From: Amoebophrya sp. A120 | Lineage: Eukaryota; Protista; Dinoflagellata | Direction: 5' to 3' | Length of the DNA stretch: 64,000 nucleotides | Assembly: GCA_905178155.1 (NCBI GenBank) | Contig: CAJINV010000009.1 | Location: 1,791,817 to 1,855,816, forward strand | In this document: positions 519-52,000 of the stretch, piece by piece | How the letters are laid out: each line of letters begins with the position of its first letter | How positions within the stretch are numbered: position 1 is the first letter of the stretch | Notes under the pieces: generated by a model | Told to the model about the DNA's origin: nothing | Database searches by the model: none | What the model saw: only the letters and a program-made list of their open reading frames with translations | Program-made: the position numbers and the translations under genes

Positions 519-3500
519 CTAGTGCAAATCTTCCTTCCGGTTGTAATCCATTTTGTTCAGGGCATGCACAGCAACAGAGACGAGGGCTGCAAGAGAGTGG
601 ACTCTGCATCATGATAGATAAACCAACGCCCGATTCATCGGAGGCTATTCCTGCTTTGAATCGCTTTCAGAATTTATCACGCAAACAGTGGCAAAAGTCA
701 GTTTCAGTACGTGAGGTTGCGACAACTTTGCAATGCCAATGACAAATGAGGCGGGGAACAAGCGGAAGGGGGAGCAGCTGCGCACTCTCATACATTTCCT
801 TGACTTGTTCTTGGCCTGTGTGTTTCATCTTGTTCTGTTCAGACGGGGGCTCCTTCGTTTTTGTCGATGTAGTCGAAACCTTCATCATACTTGCGGCGCT
901 CGGCATCTTTCCACCTTCTGCCATACTACTGCCCGAACCCGCAAAACCGGCGCCGATCGTACCAGCCGTAGCTGCTGCAAACGGGTTGTTGTTGAAGACT
1001 CTGGGCGTTCTCGAGGCGGAAGCCTCGCGCGCCGTGGCTGCATTCGTCAAGATCGCGGTGATCTTGTTACTAAGAACTCCGCCGGCCGCCGCGGAGGAAA
1101 GCGACGATTGTTTCTGCCGCTGCTGCAGACTGAAAGTGTTGGCCTTCGATAACTGATCGGCAGATGCGGCGAGCGCTTCCGCGGTAATGACGGTCTTGGA
1201 CGGGACTGACGAAGCGGTGTTTTGCAGAGCTTGTTGTGGTCCACCGGTGGTCCTCGATGCCGGCTTCTGTAGTTGACTTGTAACTGAAAAAGACGATGAG
1301 TTGGGGTCTGCTCCTTCCGGTGCTGACCCGCCTCGTCGTAATTTGTGTTGTTCCTGAATCCGATCTCTCTCGGAGAGTTCCCGTTTTTCCAACTCAAGAA
1401 TTTGCTGCTCGCGCTCCAGATTCTGCTCCCACTTTCGGAGCCGGTCCTCGTCTTGAGTGAGCTGGTTTCTTCTGCCGCCCACGAGGGACGCCTGCAGATT
1501 GGAGTGCGAGTAACCGTGTTCACGTTCAGGATCTTCTTTATCTCTGCTGCTGGGCAACGCTACGGCTACACTGAGACTGAGTTCCTTCTCTGCCTCGTCG
1601 AGTTTCACACTGAGCTCCTGTTGGAGGTTCAGCACCTCCTCCCACCGCTCTGCCAGCTCCGCTTCTTTCTGCGCCAGCTCTTCCTCCCTTTTCAGCAAAG
1701 CGGCGGACTTTCTCTTCATTGCTGCCTTTTCCTTCTCAGATGTTGAAGCTCCACCACCTCCTTCGATGGGTGAAGCGCGGCTATCAACATCGTGGGCAGC
1801 TTGATGTTCAGCTGTTTTCTTCGTTCTATTCGCCTGGTTCTGTAGTTCCCTCTCCTCGAAGAGCTGCTTCAGTTTGCCTTTCCACTTTGCCTCCAGCTCC
1901 TTGACAGCGTTTTCCCGCTGCTGCAGCCTTTCCAACGTCTCCCGCCCCTGCTTCGCCAACTCTTCGAGTTCCTGCTTTCTCAGTCGGTTTTCCGCGAGAT
2001 CCATCATTTGTTCAGTGCCGGTTGCAGGTCCAGAACCCGGAACCGGGCCGCTACTTGTTGGAGACTGAACCCACAACCCCCCATCGCTGCGCCCCTCGAA
2101 AACCTGGCTGCGTTTCTCGAGTTTTTTCGCGAGTTGCTCCACCTCGTCCAGCTTCGCCAGCATCTCTCTGCGCCCGAGAAACACGTCTTTGGGTGAGTAA
2201 AACTTTTTTTCTCGCGCGTGGAAGACGACGGCTGTCGGGTCTTGAACCCGGTCGTCCTGGCCGTGCAGGAGAAACAAAATCTTCTCCTCAACGCCCTGCC
2301 AAACTGCAGGCCAGGCGGACAACGGGACGGAGGGATTCTTCAGCATAACAGCCGGCGCGTTCTGGTTCTCTGTGCCACCAGTCGGGAACATGCTGCTGAG
2401 GTCGGCTCGCCCGCCCGTTATGTTGCCGTTTTGCAATGTCTGCAGCTCGAGTTCCTGCTGCTGTTCCTGTTCCCGCTGCAGTGCGTAAACAGCTTGCATC
2501 ACCGAAAGGTTCGCTGCGTCGTTCCACACCGCAAGTGCGCGTGCTGGTTCGAAAACCCTGGCAGACTGCAGCTCGAATAGGTACGGGCCCAGCTGCACCG
2601 TGTCGTGGTTCCGGAGGCAGATCTTGCCCAACTGCATGCGGCCGTTGACGAAAATTTCGAAAGAATTACCAACGTTCTCCAGCGTGATGGAAGAAAAGCC
2701 TGTCGCACATCCCTCTTCTGTGTTCACATGGTGCGTCACGCGCACATGAACCTCACAAGGCGAGCGATTGTTGGCGGAGCCAGAATTGATGTCCGCAGCC
2801 AGTGCTGCTCTCGCGTTATTTGGCGCTGCTCCAGTACGAGGATTTGCAGCCGATTTCTGTGGTTGGACCGGAGCTGCGCCTGTTATGGCCTCGAACTGTT
2901 GCGCCCAGCTTTCCAACCGTTCACGGTATCGCTCATCCAGAATCCGTCTCAGTTTCATCCGGATAGGTGCGTACCGGCCCTGGAGAACAGAGCTTGCACT
3001 TGTGTCGTCAAAGTACGCCGCAACCTTCGCCATACTTTCGCACCCGAAATCCAACACGTCTGGCAAAGTGATGAACTCGGAAGCCGAAGCTTCGCGGAGG
3101 TCGTCGGCGTAGTGCGAGTTATTTGCTAACGAGTGCCTGTTCGTGTTGTTCGAGGGTGCTGCGCCAGCTGCAAGGCCCTGCTTCGGTAGTTTCCGTGTGA
3201 GAATCAGGTGCAACTCAGAACCTGGTTGCAGCTCGTACCTAACCGCACCCGCCAAGCTGCGATCGAAAAGTGGCAAACTGGCCAAGCACGGCGGCGGGGC
3301 TTCGACAGTGCTCGGACAGTCAAGGATAGTTTCCACACTCGTGTCGTTGTTTTTGGCCAAGCGGACGACGTTTCCTGAAAGTAAAGAAGAACGACTGCCG
3401 TGTGTTACGTGACTGTCTTTTCTCTTGCTCTTGCAGAACTGATGCCTTTGATTCAGCTGGTAGAGCAAACCCAGAGCTTCCTCCGAAAATTCGTGCATGG

Positions 3501-9299: not shown

Positions 9300-11147
9300 T
9301 CAGTTACGCCGATGACCTCCGTCGTTGACAAGAGTTTCCACCCTCTGCAGGAACCGATTGACATTTTCGGATAGATTATTTTGCCCCTGAAGAAGCGTTT
9401 CGTGCCCTCCAGAAAGGCTCTGCACGCTTTCGGCCAGGTGTTCGTGACGTCGCAGCAGGGTATCGTGCAGGCTTTCTTGCCCCTGGGAAACCTGGTCTTG
9501 TCGCTCGATTAGGCTCTGCTGTCCCGCAGCAAGCTGCTGCTGCCCTTCGCGCAGGCGGTCTTGCCCCTGAGAAAGCTGGTCTTGTCGCTCGATCAGGCGC
9601 TGCTGTCCCGCAGCAAGCTGCTGCTGCCCTTCGCGCAGGCTTTCTTGCCCCTGAGAAAACTGGTCTTGTCGCTCGATTAGGCTCTGCTGTCCCGCAGCAA
9701 GCTGCTGCTGCCCTTCGCGCAGGCTCTCTTGCCCCTGAGAAAACTGGTCTTGTCGCTCGGTTAAGCTTTGCTGTCCCGCAGCAAGCTGCTGCTGCCCTTC
9801 GCGCAGGCTTTCTTGCCCCTGAGAAACCTGATCCTGCAGCCGGTCAACCAGAATGTCGACCCTGGCGCCCTGATCCGTTCCCATTTGTGCGATTTCCCCC
9901 CGCACGGTTTCGAGGCCGGCAGCAAGCGATGCTGTGCCTTCGGCGATACGGGACTCCAAGTCTGCTCCCTGGCCAAGCAAAGTATCCCCTAGTCGTAACT
10001 GGTCCTCCCGTAGATCCGAGGTTGCCGTTAGTACGGCCGCAATGTCGTTTCGAACCGTGTCAAAGCGTGCGTTCGTATTCCCCGCGTGCTCCGCCATGCT
10101 GTTTTCCAACGCGGTGTGCACGTTTTCCACGGTCTGCTGCAGTTCCGTTTGCACTGTCTCGATGCGTGCCGATAAATTAGTAGCGCCCTGGTCAACGATG
10201 CGCCGCAGTCCCTGCAGAGTCGTACGCAAACTAGCCAGCTCGTTGCTCCACTCGCCACCGCGGGCGTCTATCAGTTCCTCGGTAGCCTGAATCTGGGTCA
10301 ACAGGGACGCAAACTGGGATGCATTGGATTCCTGTGTGGCCTGCAGTTGCCTCTGGACCTGCGTGTCCACACTGGATGCCTGCTCAGACTGCAGCTGCAG
10401 CAATTGCTCATGCCTGTGTTCCGTGTGCCACGCGGAAACAACCAGCCCGACGGCAAGAAGTAGGATACCGAACAGAAGAGCGAGCAGGGCTGCTCCGGTG
10501 CTTGTTTTGCAGGATCTCGACCCAGCAGCAGGTGATGTTGTAGTAGTTTTTCCTTTCGTGCTGGGACGGACGATAAGGAGATCCTCCTGAGAGCGCTCAT
10601 CATGATCTCCCAGCGCGGTACAGCCTCGCGTTCGTGCTGTTGTCGGATTCTTTGTGCCACCTCCGAGCTTGGCCTTGGTCTTGATTTTGCTCTTCGTTTT
10701 GCCGCTTTGTCTTTCTTCTACATTATCTTGACCTCCTTCCCCTTCACCAAGAGGAAGATGAGGGAGACCCTCAACTTTTTCCCGTTCCAAGGCGCTAAGA
10801 TCAATACTATAATCGTGCTGCCGAAGTGCTTCTTCGAGCAACGGCACGTCCTCGCCGCCGCAAGTGACCTCCACTCGTACCAGCTCCTCCTCAATCTTGT
10901 TTCTCGCTCCCGCTCCTGCAGCTGCAACATGCATTGCGCATATCTGCTGTATCTTGCTGTTGTCGACGGTTTCTGCTTGCTGTGGCTCGACGCCGGGCGG
11001 AGAGAAAAATGGTGACTTAGAGATTGACGCTCGACACCTGCGCTTGTCCTTTTCGTTTTCCTCGTCTTCGTCTTCCAGCTCTAGCAACAATGCGACCCGC
11101 TCCTCACCGTCCATCCTGATGTTTTTATCACTACAACTTCTTTTCAT
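9300..11147 (-). CDS. Single-pass membrane protein with long coiled coil and LxxGQ heptad repeats
   Basis: 615-aa ORF with hydrophobic segment GAALLALLFGILLLAVGLVVSAW, followed by coiled coil and 28-aa tandem repeats. Confidence 0.8.
   Translation of the reverse strand: MKRSCSDKNIRMDGEERVALLLELEDEDEENEKDKRRCRASISKSPFFSPPGVEPQQAETVDNSKIQQICAMHVAAAGAGARNKIEEELVRVEVTCGGEDVPLLEEALRQHDYSIDLSALEREKVEGLPHLPLGEGEGGQDNVEERQSGKTKSKIKTKAKLGGGTKNPTTARTRGCTALGDHDERSQEDLLIVRPSTKGKTTTTSPAAGSRSCKTSTGAALLALLFGILLLAVGLVVSAWHTEHRHEQLLQLQSEQASSVDTQVQRQLQATQESNASQFASLLTQIQATEELIDARGGEWSNELASLRTTLQGLRRIVDQGATNLSARIETVQTELQQTVENVHTALENSMAEHAGNTNARFDTVRNDIAAVLTATSDLREDQLRLGDTLLGQGADLESRIAEGTASLAAGLETVRGEIAQMGTDQGARVDILVDRLQDQVSQGQESLREGQQQLAAGQQSLTERQDQFSQGQESLREGQQQLAAGQQSLIERQDQFSQGQESLREGQQQLAAGQQRLIERQDQLSQGQDRLREGQQQLAAGQQSLIERQDQVSQGQESLHDTLLRRHEHLAESVQSLSGGHETLLQGQNNLSENVNRFLQRVETLVNDGGHRRN
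9468..9837 (-). repeat. Coding tandem repeat, 84-bp unit, about 4.4 copies (QDQFSQGQESLREGQQQLAAGQQSLIER)
   Basis: Near-identical 84-bp units visible in both DNA and protein. Confidence 0.92.
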
Positions 11148-12118: not shown

Positions 12119-15100
12119 CTACTTTTTCTTCTTCCCACCGCCGGCCTTGGCCTTTTTGTCCTTTGGACCCTTCGGACCGGCAGCTTGTGCCCTCAGGGCG
12201 GCCTCTATCCACAGAAAAAAAACCCATCCCCATCCATTTTTTGCATGACAGACACGGGATTTGATGTATGTTTTGCATGAAAAATTGGATGTCGTGGATG
12301 GGTGTTTTTCCGGGATAGCCTCCTCCGCGGCTTTCTGGCGTTCCAGCTCCAGCCGCTCCTGTATGAGAGTGCACAACTCCCCCTCACCCTCATTTGTATA
12401 GCATGAACGGCAATCATCATCATCATGTAGTGGACACCCGCACCCAGCGCCACAGGTCAAGGATCCCCTCCCCGGGGGGTAGGCGAGCGGCAATACAAGC
12501 ATCAGCAAGAGTGCCGGTTTTGCATGACAGATTTGCAGTGGAGGGTGGTGCTATTTGGGCTACCAGAACTTGTCATGCAAACAGTCGAAGAGGCAAAGGG
12601 AAGGGTGGATTGGGTTTGGGTATTTTGCATGACAAATGAGGGGGAGGGGGAGTTGTGCATTGTCATATCCTGCTCCAGCTTGTCCTGTTCCAACGCCGCC
12701 GCCTCCAGCTCCTCCTCAATTTGTCTCTGCTTGGCCTCCCGCTGCAGCCGGCGCTCCTCCAGCCGGCGCAGCTTCTCCTGCTTGCGCTCCTCCTCCTCCC
12801 GCCGGAGCTGCTCTTCCTTGATCGCCTGCAATTTGATGGACTCCGTGATGTCCGGCGCGTTCAGGATCATGTCGTCCGGGTCCAGTTCCACCGGGCGCAG
12901 CTCCGCCAGCTGCTCGCTGGACATGGTGGTCAGCTTGTTCTGCGAGGCGATGGTCTGGTTCGAGGACTCCCCGCCCCGGCCGTACAAGACGCCGATCTCC
13001 CGCTCCAGTTTGTGGAAAATCTGGGAGTACTTTTGGTCCTGCTGCCAGTCGTCGACGCTCAGCTGCATGTCCCCGATGCGGCGCCCGAACTCGCTGGTAC
13101 CCAGACTGTTGTTGTAAAACACGTTCCGGAGAGTATCCTCAGCAAAAACGTCCCCACCCCATAGTCAAGTTGGGAATCTGGCAACACAAATCTCCAAGTT
13201 TTGGAAGCTGTGCATGACAAGTCTCCCTGTGCAGTGTAGGGCTGGCTGGCAAGGAAAGCCGCATGAGAAAGCCATTTTCCCATCGTTTTTACAGCATTAC
13301 AAATTCCAAAACACGATTGGAAATTCCTCTCATGGAACTGCGCATTGCAAATGTTCCTGTCATTGCACATGTGCATGACAACTCTGTCGTGGGCACATTT
13401 TTACTCAGAATAGAGCGCGCTCAGCTCGAACAGCTGGTCGGCCACGTCCTCGTCTCCGTCGTCGTAGTTGATGCGCTATCCTGTGCAAAAGTATCGCACT
13501 CGTACGAATTGCAGTTATGCATGACAAATTTCCTTTCCAAGGTAAAACAGCATGACAAATTCAATTTTTCATGCTGAGAAAATTTGTAATGAAATTTATA
13601 CTAGTACGATGGTTTTGCAATTCATATGTGCGCCCCCGCGGACACCAGCATGTCAAAAATCGCCTTCCGGCCCAACTTCGACGCCTCGATGATGGGGGTC
13701 TGTCGGTAGAAGTCCTCGACCTCGAGCAAGTTCACGTAGATTTTTTGCTTTTTGCGCACCGTCAAGCTCGCGTAGACACTTTTCGCGTTCTCCTGCTCCT
13801 GCAACAGAATCTCACGCTGCAAATCGTCTAGCTCTTTGCGCATCGTCGGGCTGTTGCTGTTCGTGTTAGTAACGTTCAACAACTTCAGCATTTTCGCGCT
13901 CGGACTGCTCGGGGCGGCTGCCGCAACACCAGCGTCATCTTCGTCGTCAACGTTTTCTGTTGTGAGTTGCTGGTTCAGGACATCCGTTCCTCCCGTGTTC
14001 TTCAGGGCCTGCGCCACCACGTCCGCCTTGAAGCGTGTCCCTTTCGGCCAGTCGGACTTGGCATCGAGCAGCAGCTCGTCCAGTGTGGGGATGGGCGGCG
14101 GGGCGAGCTCTTTGCGAATGCGGACGTTGTAGTCCTGCCGCCGCTGCCACATCCCCTCGCACTCGACGAGCAAGTCCCTGTACTCCTGCAGTTCCTCATC
14201 CAGCTCCTTTCGCCAGTCTTCCGCTTCGAACTCGGGCGGGAAAACCTTCATCTCGTCAACTTCAATCTTCATCAGCTGGGCCTTGGACGGAGAAAGAGCA
14301 CTTGCTGGTGATGGTGCAGCGTTCTTCTCACTCTGCGTCTGCCCAATCTGCTCGTTATTATTTCCGCCATTTTTGTCCACTATCTCGACATTCTTCCGTC
14401 CAGTGCTAAGTGGGGTGTTGGCAAATTGGACGGCAGCATGCGTGCCCTCGGTGTTCATCGGATCACTTTCCAGTAATTGCGGTAGGGCGACGTCGACATT
14501 GCCTCCTGCATTTTTCCTTTTCGGGTCATTGTAATCAGCTTCCGTAATTTCTATTTCATTCTTTCTTGCTTCATCAATTTCGCCATCTTCACGCTCTACT
14601 TCCCTCGTCTGTGGTCCGCCCAAGGTTTCTTCGTCGCCACTGACTGCAGCCGTGCGGATTATTTCGCTTGCTCGACCGTCTTGATGCCGATCTACGTCAG
14701 GCGCACCCGCGGGAATAATGCGGCCATGTTTAGTATTAGTCCCCTCTCCACCAGCAGCATCTTCTTCATCAGGCTCTAGCGTTTTCTCCGATTCGAGACT
14801 ATGTGGATGCAGAGCTTGGCCTTGTTGCTGATGATGAGTATGATCCCTAGCAGCTACAACAACCGTCGCCGCATGCTGTGGGGATGTCGAGCTTGACGAC
14901 GCCGAGGCTCCGCGATTAGAATTTGCCGTTCTGTTACTGGTTTCTTGTTCACCTCCCAACAAGATTTGCGACATGAAGGGATAGTCTTGCGCGTTGGCCG
15001 CCGCCCATTTTTTCTTGTACCGCTCGACGGCGCCCAAAACCAGTGGCTTGTAGGCGGTTTCTTCCTCGATTACGTAGTCCTTTACCATCGAATCCAGAAA

Positions 15101-15571
15101 CTTGAGCAGTTGCTTTTCAGATTCTTTCGTGGAATCGTTCTCCAGCTGGTCGTCTTCCCGGAAAAACCCGCCGGCCACCATCGAGTCGATGCCGAACTTC
15201 CCGCGCTTCCCGGCCTTCATCGGGTCGAGGTAGTGCTGCGCGTTCAGTTCCAGAATTTTGGAGCTGAGCACCTTCATGTTGTACCGAATGGCGTAGTGGA
15301 GCAGCGTGCGGCCGAACTTGTCCTGGAGGTGAAGTTCCTTCTCGTACAGTTTCGAGTAGAAATCGGAGGAATAGGGCCCGGCGCGGAGGTTGTCCGTCGT
15401 CATCAGCATCTCCATCAACTCCTCCTCGCTCATGCCCTTTCTCAACGCGTAGATCATGCGGGAACCGAACTCCTGGAAGTCGATGTCCTGCGTGTGCAGC
15501 GAGTGGAACCGGGGTACCCGTCCATCCAGCACGGCCCCCGAGGGAATCAGCGTTTCCGTCACGAAAGGCAT
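12119..15571 (-). CDS. Ankyrin-repeat and coiled-coil protein with Lys-rich C-terminus; five exons separated by four TIR/TSD introners
   Basis: Ankyrin motifs QDKFGRTLLHYAIRYN and QTPIIEASKLGRKAIFDMLVSAGA(H/R)IN. Removing the four elements gives one continuous frame: ...AGA(H/R)INYDDGDEDVADQLFELSALRNVFYNN...KLEQERLELERQKAAEEAALRAQ...GGGKKKK*. Confidence 0.85.
12206..12317 (-). mobile_element. TAT-family introner, 112 bp, perfect TSD GAGGC
   Basis: GCCTC at 12201-12205 and 12318-12322. Termini TATCC...GGATA with ~35-nt imperfect IR and two TCATGCAAAA motifs. In-frame join EEA|ALRAQ. Confidence 0.9.
12362..12667 (-). mobile_element. TAT-family introner, 306 bp, perfect TSD CAGGA, 36-bp TIR
   Basis: TCCTG at 12357-12361 and 12668-12672. 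TIRs TATGACAATGCACAACTCCCCCTCCCCCTCATTTGT vs TATGAGAGTGCACAACTCCCCCTCACCCTCATTTGT. In-frame join LEQ|ERLE. Confidence 0.92.
13134..13412 (-). mobile_element. TAT-family introner, 279 bp, TSD CGCTC/CTCTC, 24-bp TIR
   Basis: TIRs TATTCTGAGTAAAAATGTGCCCAC vs TATCCTCAGCAAAAACGTCCCCAC, with two TGTCATGCA motifs. Removing 5 flanking bases restores frame (SAL|RNVFYNN); removing the 3-base CTC repeat does not. Confidence 0.88.
13477..13626 (-). mobile_element. TAT-family introner, 150 bp, TSD GCACA/GCGCA
   Basis: Termini TATGA...GGATA with two TTTGTCATGC motifs. The 3' end GCGATACTTTTGCACAGGATA is identical to that of the element at 33221. The join completes the ankyrin GA(H/R)IN motif. Confidence 0.85.
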
Positions 15572-16465: not shown

Positions 16466-16804
16466 TCACGCTTCGCCTTCGAGTTTTGGAAGGTAATTGA
16501 TTGTGAGAACGATGGCGCCGCTGCTCATCAGCATGCAGAATGAGGTCCATTGGTTGCTCGAGCTGGCTGCCACAAAGACCGGCCAGCCGCGAGGGGCGGC
16601 CCGGGCCTCCCTTGAGTCAAACGTAGAGATGAGCATCACGCCCGCGAAGAGCAACAACATGCAACCCAGGACGCATATGTACGGCGCCCGGCCCATCCGA
16701 ATATGTTGCCGGATCAGGCTGCGGATGGTTTGGCGAATCGCCGCTACCACTTCCTTCACCTTCCCCATCACCGTCCTCGTTCCTCCCCTGGATGCAGGCG
16801 GCAT
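16466..16804 (-). CDS. Small membrane protein with two hydrophobic segments, unknown function
   Basis: 112-aa ORF with GC3-rich codons and hydrophobic stretches YICVLGCMLLLFAGVMLIS and WTSFCMLMSSGAIVLTINYL. Confidence 0.45.
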   Translation of the reverse strand: MPPASRGGTRTVMGKVKEVVAAIRQTIRSLIRQHIRMGRAPYICVLGCMLLLFAGVMLISTFDSREARAAPRGWPVFVAASSSNQWTSFCMLMSSGAIVLTINYLPKLEGEA

Positions 16805-17720
16805 GCTGTGGCCGTCTGCTTACAGTTCCAAAAATTGAACTCAAGATGACTAGGCTGTTCCGGTCCCCCGAGGACGGTCTTGTGCGCACTTTTTAAGGAA
16901 ATAGGACGACCGCTGCACCAGACTACACGGGAATCCACAGATCATGTAGGGGTTTATTGCATTTCCATTTACCTCCTTAACGACAAACACGCCGCAACTA
17001 AGCGACAAGGGTCGCAATTTATTTCTTTTCTGAGTTGTTGTTGTACTATCTAAGTTAGACTGATAAACGGAAGATAGAAGAGATGAGATGCATTCTTATT
17101 CTTTCTCTTCAAACGCCACACTTCATCGCGCGTGGCCGCGACGACGACCACCGCTGGCCACGATCGTGCTTATTCAACGGGATATGTTGTTGACAAGCAG
17201 GTCGCAATGCGTACTTATACGGAACTCGTGTTGGTGAAAATGAAGATCCTAGTACGCTTTTTTTTCTATTTGGTCGTTCCCTCTCGACGCCGGAACAAGT
17301 AGCCGCAGATGACAATACCGCATCCGTACTATACCGTATCGACTCTCACTGCCTCGAATAAGCAATAACTTGATATGGAGGCATGCCGCACGAAGAAAAG
17401 CGGTCTCTGAAGAGGATCGTCGTTTGCGAATGCGAGAACACAGGAAATAGTGCGACTATGAGTTGTACAAAAAGTAAGATGACGTTTCCTCGCTAGTGGC
17501 GGGATCATACTGAGTGTGTGTCGCAGTCGCTGATAGTACACTTTATCATCGCTCTATCATCTTCATGTCGTCGTTGTCGCTGATGCTCAGTATGCTATCA
17601 TCCAAGTTCATCGTTCCAAAAATACAGAAGATTGGAGGAACGAACTGTGGAACAACTGAAACTGTTGAAACTGTCATCCTACAATTTCATTATTCTCACT
17701 TTGAAAGCGTTAAGGTTTGC

Positions 17721-31300: not shown

Positions 31301-32079
31301 CTCATCGACAAAACGCGTGGCATTTATATTTTCCGTTGGAGTTAAGATTTAGCGTTACCAACACCATCGCGATCATCGCCTCCCAAGTGCACTGCAGTTG
31401 AAGTGCAATAAAAGATGAATGACCGGATATTGATGAAAAAGATTACGAATAGTAAGCTTCGGATTCATCTTGACCTCGGGCGCTTCAGGTTTCACAAAGG
31501 AAAGGGCCCCATGTTGAAGCGAATCCTAACCAAGTTTTTGTAGCTTGTAAAATATTGCTTTTTTTTATCTATACGACCTTACACTGAATCTTAAATACAA
31601 ATACTGCCCAGGTTATTCCTTCAACATCTTTACAACCCTTCCCCCTTCCTGTCATTCTCGCAGTTATATATAAACTTGTTTAGTTGATGTAGATGTAGCG
31701 CTTCACAATGCTAGTGGTCTTTACTTTTAATTTGAAATCACGTCGAGCAACTACAGCTCGAAAGCGAAAGCATCAACATGCGCGATTAAGTTTAAGTTAG
31801 TATGAGTAAATTGCTAAAAGAATGCCAGCGTCATTCGGACAACTTTATCGAGCTGGCGTGCCTTTGCGCGTTAGTTGCTCTTGATGTGATGCTTGCCGCG
31901 TTCGGTAAGACTAAGAAATGATTGACGCGCCAGGAGCTCTTCAGTACTGCTTGAGATGAGCTTTAGCAGTATAAGTAGTAGATAATGATAAGTATTGATA
32001 TGCGAACGGCTTCAAAAGAACTGATGCGCAGGTGACACCGCTTCTCTGTTGGGCTTACATATTGATAAATTGATAATGA

Positions 32080-32430
32080 TATTCCATCAAATCCGCTTTG
32101 GCATGTGGAAAAAGATTCAAGAAGTTGCAGGCTGGCACCAAAAATCGCCGATGCAGCTCTCTTCAACCCGATGACGCCGAGGGAAAAGAAGATGCGCCCG
32201 AATACTGCTCCCAATGTGCCGGGGACGGTGTGCGCGAAGGCGTCGTCGAGGGTGCGCGCAACGCCGGAGAGCTACGAACCGAGCTGCGCCCTCGTTCAGA
32301 TGAGTCGACTGGTGACCCCCGATCGTCTTGTCCACCATGATGTCCCCAGAAGCAGTAAGGCGGAATCACGACCCCATTGGGCGAGCACGATGCTCCATAT
32401 GGAAGCGCCGTATGGGCGTCGCCCATGATC
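32080..32430 (-). pseudogene. Possible decayed membrane-transporter fragment (NRAMP-like helices)
   Basis: One frame reads SIWSIVLAQWGRDSALLLLG...*...*LSGVARTLDDAFAHTVPGTLGAVFGRIFFSLGVIGLKRAASAIFGASL, with two stops. The resemblance is by eye only. Confidence 0.2.
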
Positions 32431-33051
32431 ATCGTCGCCGGGTTTATGGCACCTGTTCGTCCACATGAGTTCATGTTGAGTAATACACAAGCGAAAGCGC
32501 GCATGAACGTAAAATGGATACATATTCATATTGGCGATAGCTGCTTTTTACAATAGTCTAACTACGGTATTTACAATTGGATTACCTTCATTCGCAACTC
32601 CATCGCTCAAATGAAAGTCATCTGCAGCTCACGTATTTAGCCCGTAAGACCACGACGTGACGAACGAGCGATGGAAAAGCTCGGGCTAGATTTACGAGGG
32701 AGTCCAACTGTACGCCTTGAAAAAAAAAAAAGAACCTCCGTAAAGCGTCAAAACAAAGTAAGCACCTTCTCCTCGTTGCGGCTGCGGGTAGCAGTATGCA
32801 GCGGATAGCTGCAGTTCTTCGTCCTCCGGTAAACTGTAGTGGTACGTGGAATTGAAGGACATTGGCGAAGACGCACTCGGCCCAGAAAAACCATATCCAG
32901 GGACGACGTGGCGCTCTGCGGCTACGGGAGTGGCTGTTGTGGCACCAGTATGGGGCGATGGCCAGATGAAACCATGCTGACCTGCATTGTGGAACACCGC
33001 CGGAGTACTACTACTTGAAGAAGATGCTGGCGCGTTGGCCAGCTGCTGCAG

Positions 33052-34541
33052 CTATACCGGCTCTGGTGGGCACGAAAAGGGACTCTCCTGCAGCTGCTGC
33101 TGTAGCGGTTGTGGTGCGGGACAAGGCAGAGCAGGTGGCAGAGCAGCAATTACAGCGGCCTTGCCGGTCTCCAAGGGTCCAACGATAGCGGGAGGCAGCA
33201 AGTTGCACACTGCGGTCCGCTATCCTGTGCAAAAGTATCGCGCTCGTCCTACTTCTTGCAGTCGACGTCGTCCTGCATGACAAGTCTCTGTTCAAAGACA
33301 AAGGTACGTAAATCAATAACATTGAAAATTCTGCTTTTAAACTTGAAGATTTTGTGATGCAATTGCGACTAGTGCGATGACTCTACAATGGATTTGGATA
33401 TCCGCATCTGGTCCCTACTGATGTGACCAGTCTCTCCCTCGGGCGTTGCGGGCAGGCACACCGGGACCCAGACGGGCGGAAACACCGGTAGGGGTTTCAG
33501 CCACAGTTCCTCGCAAAAAAGGCCTCGCTCTTTGGGACCTACGGCTTGCAGCGTTGCTGTCATACCGTGGCCGCCATGCTGCTGCGGCAAACCCCACCAG
33601 AAAGGCACGCGGCCACTGTTGTTCCGGTCGATCCTCACGCCGTTGTAGGATACGAAGGTCGCACTATCGTATGGCGTCTGGAGCACGGCGTCCAGATCGT
33701 CCTGTATGGCGAACGCGATCGGCCGATTCGCAGAGCCCTGTACTCCAACTGTGATGTGACGAAAACTGTACTGATTCGAGACGGGATCGCGCTGCAGCTG
33801 CACGATCGGTACAAAGCTTCTCGTCTGCCCCTCGTGCGCCATGGCAGTCTGGTACCAAGAATTAAATAGTGCTCCTGGCGTAAAGACGTTGGTCATTGGA
33901 ACAGGCACAGGCACGAACGCTGGTTGATTGTGCTCCAGCAGTTCTTTTTCTTGCGGGGACGACGGAGACCCTCCTGCCGCGATGGCGGCCGCAAGAGCTA
34001 GAGGGCGAGGACCTCCAGCCGTCTCTGCAGGCATCGTTTGTTTATTTCTAGTTTCCAGTTGTTCGGCGACCGGTGCAGCAAAGGAACGGTCTCCGGAACT
34101 GGCACTGGCTTCACCGAACATCGACGAAGGACCTGCGGCCATCACGTTCCTCGGTGTCGCAGATTTTTCAGCCTCACTGTCACTGTCGACCAGGCTGTGC
34201 CAGCAGCGTGTTTCTTCTTTAACTGTCGTTTTTTGTAAATCTTGAACTTTAAACTCTAACGCTGTGCCATCGGACTCGTAGCCCTCGTCTCCGCTTTCCT
34301 CGTCCTGTTCTTTCTTCAGCGCCATGGCGATCTGTTGATAGAAGTCTCTGCTGGACGAAGCTCTGTACTTGCTCGGCATGTGTGACCAGTTCGCACCGTC
34401 CCATACGTTCGTCATCGCCAGAAAATTCCGCAGGCCAACTTCATTCATAATCATAACTTCCTCGTCTTGTAGTCGTGCGGCCCCACTGGCCGCACCCGCA
34501 GAAAAATTGTCCCCGGACCTGGAAGTCGGCTTCAGCTCCAA
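33052..34541 (-). CDS. Hypothetical protein, two exons joined across the 33221 introner; the frame resumes after TAG 33052-33054 to about 32692
   Basis: 390-aa ORF plus in-frame join RDQMR|TAVCNLLPP...PPEPV*. Confidence 0.7.
33221..33400 (-). mobile_element. TAT-family introner, 180 bp, perfect TSD GCGGA
   Basis: TCCGC at 33216-33220 and 33401-33405. Termini TATCC...GGATA with internal TTGTCATGCA. The terminal 21 nt are shared with the element at 13477. Confidence 0.88.
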
Positions 34542-35504
34542 GTTGTTGTCTATGTAACACTATGCATGTGCAATCTTGTGTTCTATTTGTCAGGAGGCGG
34601 ATGATAGGAACAAAATGAGAAGTCAGCTGTGGCTGTAGGAGCACACCAGGAGCAGGTGGTGGGGGCCAAGAATTACACGAACGATCATGGCCCGACCACC
34701 CGGATAAATGTAGGCCACTGTGTTGTAGTTGTTGATGGGTCGTGCGTGGTCATCTGCGTGCTGTTGCAAGCATTAATCTGCCGCCTCGTCCGCCACTACA
34801 AGCAATAACACTTTGAGATGCCAATGTTGACCTTGACGCTGAGTCGTCCGCGAGCTGGGCTCGAAGCCAGGGAGTGCTGGCGGCGCTCCTAATTGCACAG
34901 ACATAATCATAATCTGGCTTGAGTACTACATCTTCATCACAGAGTAGCAGAAAATCTTCATGCCAGTGAATAAAATGAGCCTCCTCCTCCTGACAAGACC
35001 AAGAACAAATCTGCCACCGATAAATGAAGCAAGAAGTCTTTGTATTCTTTGGTAATCGTTCCATCGTTCTTGATGTTCTTTCGCGTTTCCTTAAGAATGC
35101 TCCGATAATGCGCCAACATCGAGGTGCCGGGGACGCGGACAGAGCCTTCCAAATTTGGGTGCGCCCAAACGCAAAACAAATGGTTGAGGTATGGGGGCAA
35201 GTCATGCGGAGCCCGGTTCGCTTTACACTGGTTCTGGTTGCAGCTATCAGCATTGGAACTTTAACACGCGTTCGTCTTCCAGGTGTTGTTTTTGTCCAAC
35301 TCGCTGATCTTATGCGCAAACACACACGCGTCGCCATCCGATCCATGCCTACACGGCTGACCGCTTCCGAAATGGTACCTGTTGAAAGAATACTTGTGAC
35401 TGTGAGGAGGAGATAGTCACAATCTCATAAGACAGACACTTCGAAGATGAATGTCGATGCTTTCCTTCATCGTGCATAAAATTGCAAGATGAAGATGTAA
35501 CAAA

Positions 35505-37121: not shown

Positions 37122-40100
37122 CTACTTCAGCCTGCTTGTATACTTGGCAAGAATGGCGTTGACCTCTGCATCATCCTCGTCGTCGCTACTGGTTGCGGAG
37201 GGAATTTGGTTTCTCAGCGACGAAGTGCCGCGGAAGTGTCGGCTGATGCTTCGGTCCGCCGCTCCGTCGTCATCGCCGTCCTCTTCCTCGCTCGAGAGCT
37301 CTTCGTACTGAATCTTTGGCAATGGCTCAAGTGCCCTGCGCGGCTTTGCAGTTTTATTTGCATTTTTCTTGCCTGCTGTCACCGCGAGTTCAGCAGGATC
37401 CGCGTCGTTCGGCACTTGCCCAGAGGCCCCAGCTGCACTTCGTACGGAGGAGCCCGAGGCTCGAATGTCCTGCGCGCGGGCCTTCATGCGCAGGGCCCCC
37501 TGAGCGGAAACCGGAATAATGCTGTTGCTCAAACCGTCTGTAGTTGTGGCGCTTGAAGATGAAGTCGCATTACGCGCCCCGCCGTCTTCGTGCGCCGAGC
37601 GCACCGAAGAAAAAGCACCCGCGCCAAGGACAGGAGGGGATTTCGAGCGGTCGGATTTCTCCAGCGAGCTCTTCCGCGCCGAACTTCGCGGATACCGGAA
37701 GTTCAAGACCTTCAGGGGTGCCGTAACGGTGATGTCGGCGAGGTCATTCAAGCCGGTCCCGTTCATGCTTTCAGACATGGAGAAATCCTCCTCCTCTTCC
37801 TCCTCATCGGAGGCAAATTGGTCGAGTTCGCCATCGAAATTTGTCGCCGGAAGCGTCTTCTATCCCATGCAAATTAACCATCCCCATCCACTTTTTGCAT
37901 GACTAATACAGATTTTATAGACAACATGTTTTGCATGACAAATTGGATGGGGATGGTTAATTTTCACAGAATATCTTCCACCCGGCCGACATCACGCTGC
38001 TCGCGTCGGAATTCAGGTCGTCCTGGTCGTGGTCTCGGAAAGAGGGCGATTTGTCCGCAGCTATTCCGTGGTCAGTAAAAGCGTCTGGACTACTAGAAAT
38101 ACTTGCAGGAGCAGCCGCGTTTTGTATCTTTACGTTGTTCTTTCGATTTGATGATCCCTGCTTCAAAACTTGCAGTTCCGAGATACTTAGAGCATCGTCG
38201 TCGTTCTGATTCGTTCTCTGAGCTGTGTCACTTTTGTCTTTCTTCACGACGTCAAATTGTGAAGATGCCGACTGGGGTGGAGGCTGCTTCCGGCTGATGT
38301 ACACTTGCGGCTTACTGGCTCCGGGATTCGTGCTCGCGCTCGAGCCTCCTGCTTGCTGGTGAAAAACGGACGTGACAGCTGCAGATGCAGTGGCTGAGTT
38401 CGGTGTTTTCATCTCCCCGTTGTTTCTAGTGGTCTTCCTACGGGTGTTCTCGCTTCGCTCAGGGTCCGTCTCCGTCAACATTTCTTCATCCTGATGCACG
38501 CCAGTGGAGGATCTTGGGGACGTGCTGGGCATGCGGTCCGTGCTGTCCTTCGAGTGCGACGGCTTCTTCACTTTGTGAAACCCGATTTCGCGGTCGGGTG
38601 CGCGCGACCTCACGTGCGCCTGGTGGTGGTCGATCTGCTCGCGCGACCGGCCGGGATGCTCCACCTCGATTTCGACGCTCCTCTTGCCCGACGAGAGCGT
38701 GCTGTTCTTGCTGTTCACGGGCGACAATACCTCGCGAAACTGCTCGATCTGCTCCGGCTCGAGGGTGTCGCGGTACTCCTGGCTTTTGCGAAGCAGGATG
38801 TGTTCGCGTGTGCTGCTGGATGACGAGGTCGCCCGGGTGGCACCCTGAGTGTGATGCTGCTCTTCTACCACTGTACGCAGGGGCCCAACGATGGACGACA
38901 GGTGCGAGTAGGGCGCCGTTTCGAGCATGTAGTTGGCACTTTGGACCAGCTCGGCAGCAGAGGCGGCGGATCGGCTCGTCGCGTTCTTCGCAGCAGCAGA
39001 AGCAGCTCTCTGTTGTTGGCCAGTCGCAGCAGCTCCAAAGCCGAGATTCAGACCACTAAGAATCGAAGTGCTGGGGCCGTCAAACTGGATGCTCGTGTTC
39101 ACGGCGACACTGTGGCTCGTTTGCGCGGGCGGCGACCGCTCCTCTGCATCCTGGTCGTCTGGCCGTGGTCCTCTGGATGTTGCTCCGCTGGAAGACTCCT
39201 TCTGCTCGGTGGTCGAAGCGGCTTCTGTATGGATTATTAGTGTGCTGGACGAAGAGATTTATCTTGCGTATTAAATTGCTATGTTGAATTTGGTGTGAAC
39301 TTCTATACTGGAAGCCATAACAACTAGAGGACGTCGCATGCTTTTCACAAAAAAAACATACAACGAAAACAATCGAGGAGTCCGCTGCGATCATCGCGAG
39401 CAAGGCGGTGGAATATCAAAGACACAGGTGATGAATTTCGGAGACAGAGACAAACAAACTGCGGTCAGGTACGTATAAATATTTTTACTTTTCGCCAGTG
39501 CCGATGTCAGGTCTGTGACTTTCTGCTGTAGGGACAGCAGCTGGTCCTGCTGTTTCTGGAGGAACCCCCAAAGCTTCTCGTTTTTGCTCCAGGACGAGAC
39601 GGTCGAATCGTCGAGGCCTATTCGAGGCGGTGGACACTGCTTTTTCAGCGCGCTCCACTGGGCAGCAAAGTGATCGAGGTCCTGTGGCAGAAGGTTGATT
39701 TCCCGCGAGTCGAAAAGGAAAACTTGACCTCCCGTGAAGAAAAGGACGAGATGTCTCAGCGTATTTAGCTACCAAAAGTGAATAAACGAAACCGGTTCAT
39801 TGTTATGTGCTTGAAAAAAACACGAAAAAATCTTTAAAGTACATCTGTGGCTTGGAGCAAGAGATTATTTTCCGTGTGCTTGTTGTTCATGGTCTTTCCT
39901 GCGCCCAAGAATGTTCCCCCGGCGCGGCCAGTCTGCCCGGCGTTTTTCTCCGTTTTTGTGCCAAGACCACGGCCGCCGCTCCAAAAAACCTCGGTCTTTG
40001 GACTTCGCTGCGAGGGAGAGGCTGACCCGCTTTCCCGGCCGGCCGCCTCCTCCGCAGGAAGTAGATCGCCGGGGTTAATATCATCCTTCACGATCAAAGA

Positions 40101-45061: not shown

Positions 45062-48000
45062 TCACGGAGAGCTGCAGTACTTCTGCGCTCGCTCGATTTT
45101 GTAGTTGTTTTTCATCCGCGAGTTGGTGTCAGTCTTCTTCTTCCCCGGGGTTTTCGCTGGGCTAGCCATTTTCGCAGCGCGCATCGCCGCGTCAAATTCG
45201 GCTTGGAGCAGCTGTTCATTTTTATTGCAGAACTGAACAAGACTGGTGAAGAACATGACAAAAGTACGTGTAGTGCAAACAAAGCAGCGTGAGTGTCCGT
45301 GTCAAAAAAACATGATGACACTCCGTCAGGAAGCTATTCTTTCTCGGTTGTAGCTCAAGTTCGGACTCCGACTCACACAAGCAACAAGCTACTTACCTGT
45401 CGTTCCGACTTTCCCCCACGGCTTTTCTTCGGCGATTCTTCCTTTTTCGGCGACTTCACCTTGTTCGCCTTTTTGGGCGACCGGGTTTTCTTAGCGCCTT
45501 TCACTTTCCCGCTTTCCTACGGTTTTTTGATTTTGTATACTCTACGTCGCGTAATAAGCGGCCCTCAAATAAGGTCAGAGGTCACGAGACAACATTTGAC
45601 GCCCGGACGCTTGACGACAGAGCCTGACGCGCGTGACGTCGTATGGGCTAAGCACTAGTCGAACCGAAACCATGCCGCGCGGAGCACAAAGAATTTGCCA
45701 GGCAGACTAGCCTCTGCCTGCACTGTAAAGACCCTTGCATGCTAACCCCAATGCCGGCGACGCAGAAGCATCGGGGGGCTATCTGTCCTCTGCGTTTCTA
45801 AAAAGGGAGCTAGCGCGGTTCTTTCGCAATAATTCCGAGGGGCTAACCGCCCTTTGCATTTTGTACAGGAAATCTAGCCCGGTCCTGGGACAAAAATTTC
45901 GGGTGGCTAACCTCCCTTTGCATTTCAAAAAGGGAGGCTAGCCCGGTCCCTGGGCAAAGTTTTCGAGTAGCTAACCTCCCTTTGCATTTCAAAAAGGGAG
46001 GCTAGCCCGGTCCCTGGGCAAAGTTTTCGAGTGGCTAACCTCCCTTTGCATTTCAAAAAGAGAGGCTAGCCCGGTCCCTGGGCAAAAATTTCGGGTAGCT
46101 AACCTTCCTTTGCATTTCAAAAAGGGGAGTTAGCTCCTGCCCAAAAATTTCAGTTGGCTAACCTAGGTTTGCATTTCAAAAACCTAGGTTAGGAAAAATG
46201 AATTGGCGGGCTTTTGCTAGCCGCCCTTTTCAAAATGAAAAGGGCGGTTAGGAAAAAAAAAGCGCGCGGCCACGCACTCCCTTTCACACACTGCGCGCGC
46301 ACATGATGCTGGCGCCGTGGGAATAAAAAAAATTTTCGCGCGCTGCGCGCGCCCGAGTCGTAACCTTCTTCCTTCGGGAGTTAGCTCCTGCCCAAAAATT
46401 TCAGAGGGCTAACCTAGGTTTGCATTTCAAAAACCTAGGTTAGGAAAAATGAATTCGCGCACTTTTCCTAACCAAGGTTTTCAAAATGAAAACCTCGGTT
46501 AGGAAAAATAAATGTGGCCGTTTGCGAAGGCGGCCTTGGCAAACGGCCACATTTTTTTTTCCTAACCAAGGTTTTCATTTTGAAAACCTTGGTTAGGAAA
46601 AAAGGCCAAAATCATTTTTCCTAACCGAGGTTTTCATTTTGAAAAGGGCGGTCAGGAAAAATTTCAATGGGCTAACCTCTGTTTGCATTTCAAAAAGGGA
46701 GGTTAGGAAAAATGAATTCGCGCACTTTTGCTAACCGCCCTTTTCAAAATGAAAAAGGCGGGTAGGAAAAAAAATCCGGCCGCTTTCCCAGGTTCAGCCT
46801 GGAAAAGCGGCACATTTTTTTTTCCCCATTCAAATGAAAAGGGCGGTTGGGAAAAAGGCGCCAATTCATTTTTCCTAACCTCCCTTTTTCAAGTCTCGTT
46901 CTCGTGCCCAAGCCACGGCTGCCCATTACCTGAAAAAGTATTGAGGTTGTGAGAATTTAAATGGTGGCTTTCTAGCAGCCAGACTGTGCAAGTTGCGGCA
47001 GATGCACTATCACAAGGAAAAGCAAACGATAGGCATCGCAAATGCAGAAACCGACTTGCGTTTTTCATTGTCCGGAAAGGAGAGCAATTAATAGCGCCAC
47101 TCGTCGCGCACGCAGCATGGGATTGCGGCGGGCGAGGGGTAAGCTTTCCGATTTTCAGTTGCCTTGCTCGTTTTCTTGTTCAGTTCTTGCGCCTGGGCTG
47201 TGCAGTTGCCGCAGACGCGCTACGCCAATGATTACGCGTATGCATCTTGAATACATAGAAGCAACTTGCGCTGTTTGTTCTACGGAAATAAAGGGCGCAC
47301 GCCTGTCGCACAAGGACGAGCAGCAGACGCAGCGCACAAAGGTTCCGACGCGTTTTTGTTTTCCATTCCTAGTCATCAGCTACTCGCGCTCGCTAAAATT
47401 ATTCCGAGCGATGGGGCGTCAAATGTCTGGACTTATGAAAGGGCCGCTAATTCGGTTCTATAGAGTATTTGATCTGCGTTGCAGTTCTATGTAAATATTT
47501 CCTCGGTAAAAATGAAAATCTACCACGCACCATGGGTGCGTGGTAGAGGCTTCTCATGATTTGTTTCTCGCTTTTTTAAAAAGCGAGAAACAAATCATGA
47601 GAAGCCTCTTCTATGCAGAAGAAAAAGCACTCCAGCAAATTCATACGGCCTCGGACGCCGACGCGGAGGCAGCGGTGGTAGAGGACTTGGTGCTGGTCGG
47701 TTCCTTCACTTCGCCCTTCAGCAGGACCAAATCGGCCTCCGCAATGGTGTTGACATCGACGACGAGGGGCTGTTTCATTCCGATCATGATCGCGGGGGAG
47801 GTCAGGTTCACGACCGGCGGCTGCGCCGTAATAGCGTCCGCCAGCACATCAGAGGGCTTCATTTCCAGATCCTGTTCCGGCTTTTCCTTTTCGTCATCAT
47901 CAGCTCCCCCCTCCGCAGCCGCCGCCTGCGGCTTTTCCGATTGCTCGGCCGCAACCCGATCCTCCTCTTTTCCCTTCAGCAGGGACGTGTCGGCATGCTG

Positions 48001-49035: not shown

Positions 49036-52000
49036 CTAGCTCAGATTCATTTCTAGTTTCGCTCTGTTCGGACGAGTACTTCGATTGAATGGTGTTCCAC
49101 TTACGCTTGCTGCTGCATTTACTGCGTTAGCATTACTGTTCTTTGTTCGCGCTTCCTTTGCTGGTCCTTTTGCAGGACGATCAGCAGCAGGGCGCTCATT
49201 CGACACAGAAGTACTCGCACTTGATGATTCTTGTGCCTTCACGTTGAAGTGCCTTCGAATTTCGTTTCGCAGAACATCTCTCTGAGAGGGACCTGGTGGC
49301 TCGTCCGCTGTGCGAGCAGAAGACGACTGCGACTTCTCCTTCCCGTTGACCTTCCTGCAGTGTGTTCCCTGCACCTTCGACGCTGCATCTTCCGGCCCCC
49401 CGAGCAGCCAGGCTTTTTGCCGCGGCGGTGGAGGGGGCTGCACATCCCACAAAATTTCGTTGCCGCGCAGCTTTGTGCATAAATCCCCTGCAGGAGCTCT
49501 CTGCTCTTTCTTTGTTCTCTCTCCACTTTCGGCCGAGTCCTTGTCTCTTCGCCACGCTTCGATTTTCACCTTCTGTTCTTGTCGCTTTCTCGCCTCCTCG
49601 CGTTTCCTCCTTTCACGGGCTTTTTCCTCCTCAGCCGCAATCTCCTCGTCGTACGCGGCCTCGGCCTCCAGCTGCTCGTCCCGTTCTTGGTAGAGCGCGT
49701 CAAGCTTTTTCCGCAGTTCCCGATGGTGCTGCTGTCGCTTGCGCTCCTTCGCTTCGCTTCTTTCAAATTCCAGCTTTTGCTCTTTCTATCCTCAGGAAAG
49801 AACCCATGATCCCCATTGTTCACTTGATTTTGCATGCCAAACACTGGATGTGGATGAGTTGATGCATGTTCTGCAAGCATGGCAAATCCAAATTGGATGG
49901 GGATGCTGAGTCTTTTTTTGTGGATACTTCCAACTTCTCCTCCATTCTTTTCACGTCCACCAGCAACCTGCTCTCTAGCGTAGCCAACCGCTCCACGTCC
50001 TGCCGCACATCTCGCATCACGCGCTGCCGCTGGTAGTGCAGGCCCAATTCATCGGCGCAAGAACTGTTATTTGCGGTTATGGTGTGAATCACCTCCCCAC
50101 GCATCACCTCCCCACCTCCCTACCTCCCCACCCTGGGGAGGTGCCTCCCCGCGTGTGGGGAGGTGCCTCCCCAGTAGTGGGGAGGTGGGGAGGTTCTTCC
50201 CCACCTCCCTGCCGTCCAACACTTCCCCACCACGTTGCACTTCCCCGCGATGGTCGACCAGAACGTGACTGCGTCTGGATGCTTGTTGCTTGGCTTCGTT
50301 CTGTGCCATCGATCTACCTCGCGGCCATGAAGCCAGCAGGTATCTGCCACAACGCACATGGGCCCTCATCCTGCATGACAGATGCGCCTATGTACGCGGC
50401 CACCAGATGTCGACCGGCGGCCCTAAGGTGGCGAGCATGGAACGACCTACGGGGCACGCAAAGCAATGCCGCAAGGAGTTAAGGCACGGAGGCACGCCGG
50501 GGGCAAAGGGCGCACAACATTCAGAAGGGCCAACGAGAAGGGGGCGCCAAAAGGGTGACACGCAAGAGCGGAGAAGGGACAGAGCACACGAGGAAGAGAG
50601 AATCGCCGAGGCCAGCCGGCGCGACGGCGCCGTCGCGCCGGCTGGCCTCGACGACCCTAAACCCCGAGCCCTAAACCCTAGACCTAAACAACCAAGGCCG
50701 CAGCCGGCTCTGCTTCTGCATCACCTCCGGCCGTTGCGGTGGTGATGCGGCCGCGTCACGAGGTGATGCGGGGGAGGTGGGTAGGTGATCCGGGTGGGGG
50801 GGTGATGCGTGGGGAGGTGATTCAAAGGGGTGGGGAGGTGATTCACACTCCTACCGTTATTTGCTGGCGGTGGCTCTAAGACGACGACCGGAGCTGCATC
50901 TTCTCGTCCAGTGCTCGTTGCTGTGCTGCTGGTGTTCCTTCTACCACTTGAGTTGTGAGCAGGCGGATGTACCGGAACATGATTTTTATGTGGCGCGGTG
51001 CAGCGCGCCCGCAAATCCTGATGCCACGCGGCCGTGGCGCCCGTGTCATCACGGAGGAACAGATCCGTGGCTCGAATGATTTTTCGCGCCGTGTGCTGGT
51101 GCCTCCGCTTTTGCCGGTCGAAAGCATGACCTCCACCAGTTGAGGTTATTGCTTCCATGAAAGCATTGATTACGGTATCCTCGGATTTCCTTTCTCCTCT
51201 CGTCCCGCGTGGCCCTCTGGTGTCGTAGGTGGAGCCTTCTTGGCTTCGACAGGTTCGGGCGGTACTCGTGTAACTTGAAGAATTCGCGCTTAAGCTACAA
51301 TTAGAAGCGCTACTGCTCGACGTTGGCGAGTAGAGCGATGAGCGGACGACCACAGCATCGTGTTGAGACTGCTGCACCACAAGCGATTCCGTTGGCTCTT
51401 GCGAGGAGTAGTTGCAACAAGACCTACTTGTAGGTGGACCACTGTCGTCGTAGTTCTGCTTGTAGTCCTGAGTATTCAATGACTTATGATGTGGCGCCGC
51501 TTTCTTCGCCGGCGGGAACGGCTGTGAACCGAAAGATAGAGATGCTGCACCGGACGAAGCTAATTGCTCCTGATTTTGCGCCGGTGCCTTTCGCTTTGCT
51601 TGTTCTCCTGAACGTGCAACTGGTCCCGCTGTGACCATGGCCTTTTTCGAGCTCGTGCTTGCGATGTGGCTTCTTGGCGGTTCTTGTCGGAGCAGTGGAC
51701 TTTCGTCCAAAAGAGTCGCTATCCGGTCTGCGAGGCTAGGGATCCTAGAAGCAGTTTCATTTTTCTGTCCCGCAATTTTGACGTGAGCATCTTCGTCACA
51801 TGCCGAAGACGAGCTACCAGCAGGATGCCGCACGCTCATTGTTCCTTTGCCGTCATGATCCCTGGGCGAGATCGAACTGCAGTTCATGATCCCTTCGTCG
51901 CGCAGCTGAACAACGTCCGTATTGGTGGCTCTGGAGGCTGAAGCGTTTTTCACACCTTCGCAGGTCCTCCCCAGAGTTCCCGCCATCGAAGAAACCGAAG

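Follow-up and report, generated by a model that had tools for sequence, protein, structure and literature searches.

A short internal motif shared by TAT introners of Amoebophrya sp. A120 lies in either orientation relative to the host gene in a near-identical strain

Spliced TAT elements in the window

The window, by which we mean the whole 64-kb stretch of Amoebophrya sp. A120 DNA analyzed here, has all of its host reading frames on the minus strand, among them an exon (13629-15571) that matches an A120 protein at 100% identity. Eight short TAT…ATA elements, together 1,558 nt, lie in it. All eight were skipped in transcript contigs of runs X1-X3, which come from one study, are guessed but not recorded to be RNA, and skip canonical introns too; the comparison covered the window outside bases 16,501-32,500 and 52,501-64,000. 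Raw-read runs X8 and X9 gave 0 reads matching the window. Removed from the transcripts was the element plus 5 nt. The first element, the sole member of its family (515..792; minus strand, as are all those that follow), was skipped from 511 to 793, giving a spliced frame of 2220 codons, and its 5-bp target duplication has decayed. Families 0, 7, 4, and 1 are represented by 12206..12317 (skipped 12201-12317; duplication GCCTC), 12362..12667 (skipped 12357-12667; duplication TCCTG), 13134..13412 (skipped 13129-13412), and 13477..13626 (skipped 13471-13625), respectively. A further singleton occupies 33221..33400 (skipped 33216-33400; duplication TCCGC), and family 0 recurs at 37861..37973 (skipped 37856-37973; duplication TCTTC), where folding predicts a single long hairpin, and in diverged form at 49787..49926 (skipped 49782-49926). 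An inverted-repeat element of non-TAT type (50075..50855; skipped 50074-50854) is likewise spliced and is flanked by a 9-bp duplication. Two other candidates, 18423-18692 and 34561-34905, had no target duplication and were dropped. BLAST with 130 elements revealed no further family members in the window, and there were no Rfam matches within it.

The TAT…ATA elements are the introner elements published for A120 (Farhat et al. 2021; PMC7789003): their inverted repeats start with TAT, followed by about seven variable bases and at least three A, their junctions carry 5-bp duplications, and all eight are skipped in the transcript contigs. The published elements likewise have the TAT start, variable stretch, A run, direct repeats (3-5 nt), hairpin, and noncanonical splice sites, whereas the text on them, figures S19-S25 aside, mentions neither an internal motif common to different families nor orientation. 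Across the sampled elements, which measure 91-432 nt and include 10 multi-copy families, terminal inverted repeats of the form TATS-N6-AAA and 5-bp target duplications were common to all families. A logo of 290 ends had TAT in 99%, a value partly imposed by the element caller, S at position 4, and A at positions 11-14 in 80-92%. Being short, noncoding, bounded by terminal inverted repeats and duplications of fixed length, and dispersed in many copies (depth in DNA run X5 was about 100-fold across bins containing two of the elements), they resemble MITEs and other non-autonomous DNA transposons. They are also similar in length and terminal repeats to the A120 families that Gozashti et al. (2025; PMC12130899) assign, in rows 1-21 of 58, to TIR DNA transposons with superfamily unknown, where, unlike here, no motif or orientation count is given.

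A motif shared by all sampled families

Exact copies of GCATGACA numbered 12 in the window, against 2.56 ± 1.28 expected from shuffled sequence (at least 12 in 0 of 100 shuffles), and 10 of these 12 fell inside the TAT elements. The latter are on the plus strand except for one at 12571. Element 12206..12317 carries an exact copy at 12243 and a one-base variant at 12276, in direct orientation and each about 39 nt from an end; 12362..12667 carries sense copies at 12522 and 12627 in addition to the reversed 12571; 13134..13412 has exact copies at 13212 and 13373 and four matches to a broader form of the motif; and 13477..13626 has copies at 13519 and 13550 as well as a reversed variant, read from the sequence, at about 13565. 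In 33221..33400, the copy at 33275 is accompanied by a reversed broader copy at 33351. The exact copy at 37933 in 37861..37973 is joined by a one-base variant at 37897, and 49787..49926 has one-base variants at 49832 and 49877. Of the two remaining exact copies, one (50373) is the single copy in the non-TAT element and may be there by chance; the other (56128) is the only one in the remaining 61.7 kb of the window.

A preliminary description of the window had reported the motif in these elements at most of these positions (50373 was absent from its list), and this was borne out. The variant that it put near 745 exists, at about 735-747, and is the only form of the motif in 515..792. The full 14-mer in its title is present, but exactly only twice (12623 and 37929), and two copies per element, which it called usual, applies to most elements but not to three: 33221..33400 has one exact copy, and 515..792 and 49787..49926 have variants only. 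Its count of a single reversed copy is too low once variants are admitted, as they were in its own list: reversed variants occur at 673 and at the two positions given above.

Across the sampled elements, the motif took the consensus (A)TTTGT[C/A/G][A/T]TGC, with family averages of 1–5 copies per element, frequently in both directions. GCATGAC ranked first among shared 7-mers, occurring in half or more of the members of each of the 10 multi-copy families, and the broader motif reached 13.7 per kb inside elements versus 0.58 outside. Both strands carried the broader motif in 48/95 elements, and it was absent in intact form from 7/95 outside elements and 2/8 spliced window elements. The motif is thus repeated, conserved, bidirectional, and internal to the termini, as subterminal repeats are, while the sequence between copies is dissimilar across families. 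Copies in most families lie scattered, in positions that do not suit pairing.

Orientation of the motif relative to the host gene

All eight window elements carry the motif in the sense orientation, as the preliminary description stated. Taken alone, this has a two-sided probability of 0.008, and since all window genes are co-oriented, "sense" there is inseparable from "same chromosome strand." The description read the bias as a signal in the sense-strand RNA (a protein or snRNA site, or a branch point) required for excision, and one canonical intron does contain a near match, TTGTCATGTT, in the sense direction. To set against this, 29 outside loci were taken from the JACKZZ assembly of a strain very close to A120 (protein identity 96–99%), 8 of 37 loci from other sources having been left out; splicing at these loci was deduced from reading frames and homology in this different assembly. 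The element caller made about 7 calls on shuffled sequence versus 132 on real sequence; manual curation removed 2 calls, a further 2 were discarded because they overlapped others, and 29 partial hits were left unclassified. Strand calls, lacking for 40/136 elements, were error-prone: two methods disagreed in 5/53 cases, and one call based on the Markov method only was shown to be wrong.

Orientation in this sample was close to even. Exact copies were sense in 61 cases and antisense in 70 (96 elements), and by element there were 30 sense, 40 antisense, and 26 ties (p = 0.28; 95% interval for sense 0.31-0.55). The 64 elements with strand calls from long ORFs gave 44 sense versus 49 antisense copies, and the broader motif gave 134 versus 127, being antisense only in 19/95 elements. 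An antisense excess among Markov-only calls (22 vs 41; p = 0.02) faded with ORF-based calls and is not believed. Family 0, the commonest in the window, is internally one-directional (44 vs 0 copies), yet relative to the gene its elements divided into 12 sense and 10 antisense. Neighboring elements within one spliced frame, a comparison that needs no strand call, were concordant in 15 cases and discordant in 13, and both polarities occurred in 9/13 spliced frames. The valyl-tRNA synthetase gene contains two copies of family 4, also one-directional, in opposite orientations: taking out either one brings the sequence back into alignment with the A25 protein, and a retained antisense copy would cause a frameshift. 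At another locus (L026), excising an element with four antisense copies, which would likewise disrupt the frame if left in place, yields the exact junction residues of A120 protein CAD7959529.1; a homologue search with one exon of this locus found none, and the A120 protein later proved longer than the range searched.

Judged from reading frames and homology, the elements are likely to be removed from transcripts in either orientation. A fixed sense orientation in spliced copies was not observed outside the window, and a near-even split is the outcome that the preliminary description had itself named as refuting its proposal. In addition, conservation was not specific to the sense strand (core mismatch 8.1% at sense sites vs 7.9% at antisense sites), and the distance from motif to 3' end of the element ranges from about 40 to 230 nt. 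The sense-strand RNA signal is largely refuted and now seems highly improbable. The sense run in the window is most likely due to chance. The window and the outside loci do differ statistically (6:0 vs 30:40, Fisher p = 0.009; vs 22:26, p = 0.02), so A120 itself may have a mild bias toward sense.

Conservation and function of the motif

In 6/6 families, motif columns were more conserved (0.83-0.95) than other internal columns (0.65-0.85). Among the three largest families, 7% in the core versus 26% elsewhere were affected by inherited changes, whereas private changes, with all columns counted, were equally frequent in the core (2.5% vs 2.3%; p = 0.66). Fewer inherited but equal private changes are expected if selection acts while elements spread. 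The private-change test is not clean: fewer private changes fell in the core when columns with shared variants were excluded (3.2% vs 5.3%; p = 0.04) and when six families were pooled (p = 0.0004).

We consider the motif likely to be a subterminal site on double-stranded DNA that is bound by the putative transposase, or a helper protein, moving the A120 TAT introners; its direction with respect to the host gene would not be fixed. A transposase site had been the secondary idea of the preliminary description, and sharing between families, conservation on both strands, and occurrence either way round favor it. A single mobilizing machine would serve all families and would need an array of sites, so that copies with intact sites would spread; insertion would be random in orientation, and both orientations, as expected of a MITE, were seen in the related strain. 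RNA excision would then depend on features symmetric between the ends, namely the long hairpin formed by the termini and a start, N|TAT, that resembles the GTA donor. End-to-end hairpins formed about equally well in the two orientations (101 vs 100 of 103), and the sense run in the window would be accidental. A precedent for such sites is the MITE Emigrant, a non-autonomous element with repeated short internal sites beyond its terminal repeats, whose subterminal repeats are bound by Lemi1 proteins (PMC1636448). Emigrant is pogo-like, whereas the A120 elements have a 5-bp duplication, share one site across many families, and serve as introns, and their binding protein is only predicted.

Two other readings bear on the same data. 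A host factor might bind the motif, either on the DNA duplex as it is transcribed or on the RNA once it has paired into a hairpin, and so mark elements for excision regardless of orientation. The CATG core is palindromic and the two copies of family 0 face each other in the stem; families with unrelated interiors have the motif in common, often on both strands; one version of the private-change test found fewer core changes; and no U1 snRNA has been detected in A120 (PMC7789003), so that some other recognition factor would be expected. Against this stand the elements, two of them spliced in the window, that have no intact broader motif, the equal frequency of private core changes in the all-column test, and the scattered placement of copies in most families, and we regard such a host mark as unlikely. 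The motif could also be a relic without present function, inherited from one ancestral element with internal repeats; the terminus and duplication common to all families make common ancestry likely. Its core has nevertheless been kept where the sequence between copies differs between families, and is far more conserved than its neighbors within each family, which makes a mere relic improbable.

Returning to the binding-site reading, a wider version of it can be offered tentatively and with rather less than even confidence: the A120 TAT introner families may together make up one transposon system, defined by the multi-copy internal site that they share and mobilized by a transposase outside all known superfamilies. 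Excision by the host would be precise in either orientation, guided by the symmetric terminal hairpin and requiring neither fixed splice dinucleotides nor, apparently, U1, and the site may double as a host excision mark. On the side of mobility, Farhat et al. (2021) reported no transposase in A120 in their text on introners and argued against general transposase mobilization (PMC7789003), while family 38 of Gozashti et al. has an integrase-like ORF between inverted repeats (PMC12130899). On the side of splicing, the nonconventional introns of euglenids also vary at their borders, carry direct repeats where they join the exons, have a stem that draws the two ends together, and have been proposed to derive from MITEs (PMC3935182). 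They belong to an unrelated lineage and differ in their conserved stem bases (CA..TG) near the ends, and the account of them describes no multi-copy internal motif.

Implications for introner biology

The results bear on how Amoebophrya, with no U1 detected, removes tens of thousands of noncanonical introns and on what mobilizes them (PMC7789003). The present analysis removes one false lead, the sense-only RNA signal. Because copies of the same family lie both ways in intact genes, splice recognition would have to rely on features that are symmetric between the ends, and the hairpin and the N|TAT ends are the candidates left. Two points keep their interest, the common signature of the families and splicing that is apparently blind to orientation: a site common to all sampled families could serve as bait for the mobilizing protein and as a tag for the autonomous element.

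Introners and motif copies in the window

The TAT..ATA elements of the window are the A120 introners of Farhat et al. (2021, PMC7789003), extracts of which describe inverted repeats with a TAT start and short direct repeats, ~29,850 copies in 1,954 families, and noncanonical splice sites in a genome where U1 was undetected and a transposase was not found. The minus-strand exon at 13629-15571 of the window matches an Amoebophrya sp. A120 protein at 100% identity. The motif strings had no match in the supplement text consulted, and literature searches found no published description of the motif or of A120 introner orientation, part of which the figures of Farhat et al. or Roy et al. (2023, Curr Biol) may cover; none was found in passages of PMC12130899 with 21 of its 58 A120 table rows, or in passages of PMC9860276, PMC3935182, PMC11282704, and 10.1101/2024.09.05.611473. 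The elements were already known; the motif, confirmed as real, has apparently gone undescribed in print.

The string GCATGACA occurs 12 times in the window (2.56 expected), bearing out the enrichment originally noticed. Ten copies fall inside the eight TAT elements (1,558 nt total); of the other two, a spliced non-TAT element holds one and the rest of the window (61.7 kb) the second. Contigs of X1-X3, sequencing runs presumed to be RNA from one study, skip all eight elements as well as 7 GT-AG introns, and every TAT skip spans the element plus 5 nt, one copy of the 5-bp target duplication. Each skip restores a long minus-strand frame, so the motif does lie sense-wise in 8/8 window elements, where host genes are all on one strand. 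The preliminary description was wrong in limiting reversed copies to one (at 12571), as reversed variants also lie at 673, ~13565, and 33351. In the public A120 protein set, model P0121 (900 aa) includes introner 12201-12317 (117 nt) as 39 residues although transcript contigs skip it; translating in-frame introners in this way is a likely annotation error.

Motif sharing and conservation

Outside loci came from a single metagenome scan whose pattern fits either terminus of the commonest window family; of the 37 loci recovered, 29 belong to the same assembly (JACKZZ01 contigs). For two comparable genes, JACKZZ01 proteins are 96-99% identical to those of A120, and window elements are about as distant from JACKZZ01 copies as those copies are from one another; JACKZZ01, distinct from the window's own assembly, represents either a strain nearly identical to A120 or a sister species. 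Our structural caller made 132 calls on real versus 7 on shuffled sequence, and cleaning plus BLAST rescue gave 145 elements (137 outside, 8 window), including 10 multicopy families that all orient without conflict.

The most widely shared 7-mer, GCATGAC, is present in at least half of the members of 10/10 families. The fuller site, (A)TTTGT[C/A/G][A/T]TGC, has a density of 13.7 per kb within elements versus 0.58 outside and family means of 1.3 to 5.5 copies per element; both of its directions occur in 8/10 families, and host genes hold 134 copies in sense and 127 in antisense. Conservation exceeds that of other internal sequence in 6/6 families and is equal for sense and antisense strands. 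Within the three largest families the core has fewer inherited changes (7% versus 26%), while private changes show no avoidance of it (2.5% versus 2.3%); because the core is somewhat protected when only columns without shared variants are counted (p=0.04), the private-change test is suggestive. Across all elements, private changes at terminal positions 4-14 are rarer than internal ones (1.3% versus 2.3%, p=0.006), which may reflect postinsertion selection on the termini, though the caller favours intact ends.

Orientation relative to host genes

The preliminary description took the shared sense orientation to suggest a signal for excision from RNA and/or a transposase binding site, and named an even split of intronic copies elsewhere as contradicting it. 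Two methods assigned host strand, one from the length of the spliced ORF and the other from a codon model that was trained on window sequence and made 1 error against 64 correct calls at the chosen margin. They agreed in 48/53 cases; one call resting on the codon model alone proved wrong and was corrected. Strand was obtained for 96 of 136 non-nested elements, in which exact motif copies at outside loci numbered 61 sense and 70 antisense. By element, 30 were sense, 40 antisense, and 26 tied (p=0.28), and ORF-only calls gave 44 sense versus 49 antisense copies. Families 0 and 4, which carry the exact motif in a single direction only, are oriented 12:10 and 3:4 (sense:antisense) in genes. Neighbouring elements within one spliced frame, for which no strand call is needed, formed 15 concordant and 13 discordant pairs, with mixed polarity in 9/13 frames.

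Individual genes agree. A valyl-tRNA synthetase gene holds two family 4 copies in opposite orientation; removal of either restores alignment to the A25 protein, and the antisense copy would cause a frameshift if retained. At locus L026, 4/4 junctions agree with A120 protein CAD7959529.1 at every residue, including one at an element with four antisense motif copies. Frames and protein alignment point to splicing of antisense elements. The near-even split is the outcome that the preliminary description had itself set as contradicting its reading, and the sense-only claim is not supported. Separately, a family 0 element at L020:3314-3422, between two ValRS exons, apparently sits inside an ordinary intron as a non-exonic copy.

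Orientation in the window departs from that in the outside sample (p=0.009 to 0.02). The chance of eight in a row is 0.008, acceptable for a pattern chosen post hoc among many windows; A120 itself may have a mild bias.

Excision from RNA

Element ends are predicted to pair on either transcribed strand (101/103 and 100/103), a level reached by 0/6 canonical introns. Contig joints, considered jointly under a single assumed rule, put the 5' cut 1 or 2 nt ahead of TAT, on the basis of two elements whose duplications are imperfect. A cut at -1 would give an N-T-A-T start, resembling the GTA seen at canonical donors in the window and consistent with the NT donors that dominate Table S4 in extracts of Farhat et al. 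(PMC7789003). On the sense strand, the base before TAT is enriched for A (39/103, p=0.004) and depleted of C (13/103, p=0.001; both uncorrected), hinting that selection acts on the donor. Since either element end could supply the N-T-A-T start, orientation would not matter to excision.

Other elements and repeats in the window

The spliced non-TAT element (50066-50864; 781 nt, G..C ends, 9-bp duplication GTTATTTGC), which we take to be Mutator-like, has probable GT..CG splice borders. Its mRNA retains both duplication copies, adding 3 residues, and it contains two telomere-like TTTAGGG units plus one motif copy. A 2.1-kb GT-AG intron (45516-47646) carries a multicopy repeat that includes long palindromes and tandem units of 64 bp (DNA depth 75-133 versus 28). 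Within 61400-63500, AT-rich segments similar by eye (~61420-61900 and 63000-63460) flank low-complexity purine-rich repeats. A 10-bp tandem array closes the window (63903-64000), and a coding tandem repeat lies at 9463-9830 (84-bp unit, 4.4 copies, 93% alike).

Function of the motif

The motif's sharing, two-way occurrence, and conservation are what a double-stranded DNA site would show if selection acted on it during spread, and protein presumably binds it. We consider it fairly probable that the motif is a shared subterminal transposase site. In these respects it resembles the subterminal repeats of Emigrant, which, according to extracts of PMC1636448, are bound by Lemi1 proteins; for A120, binding is our reading of the pattern. 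The shared motif offers a handle on the mobilisation of A120 introners and on their apparently orientation-blind splicing.
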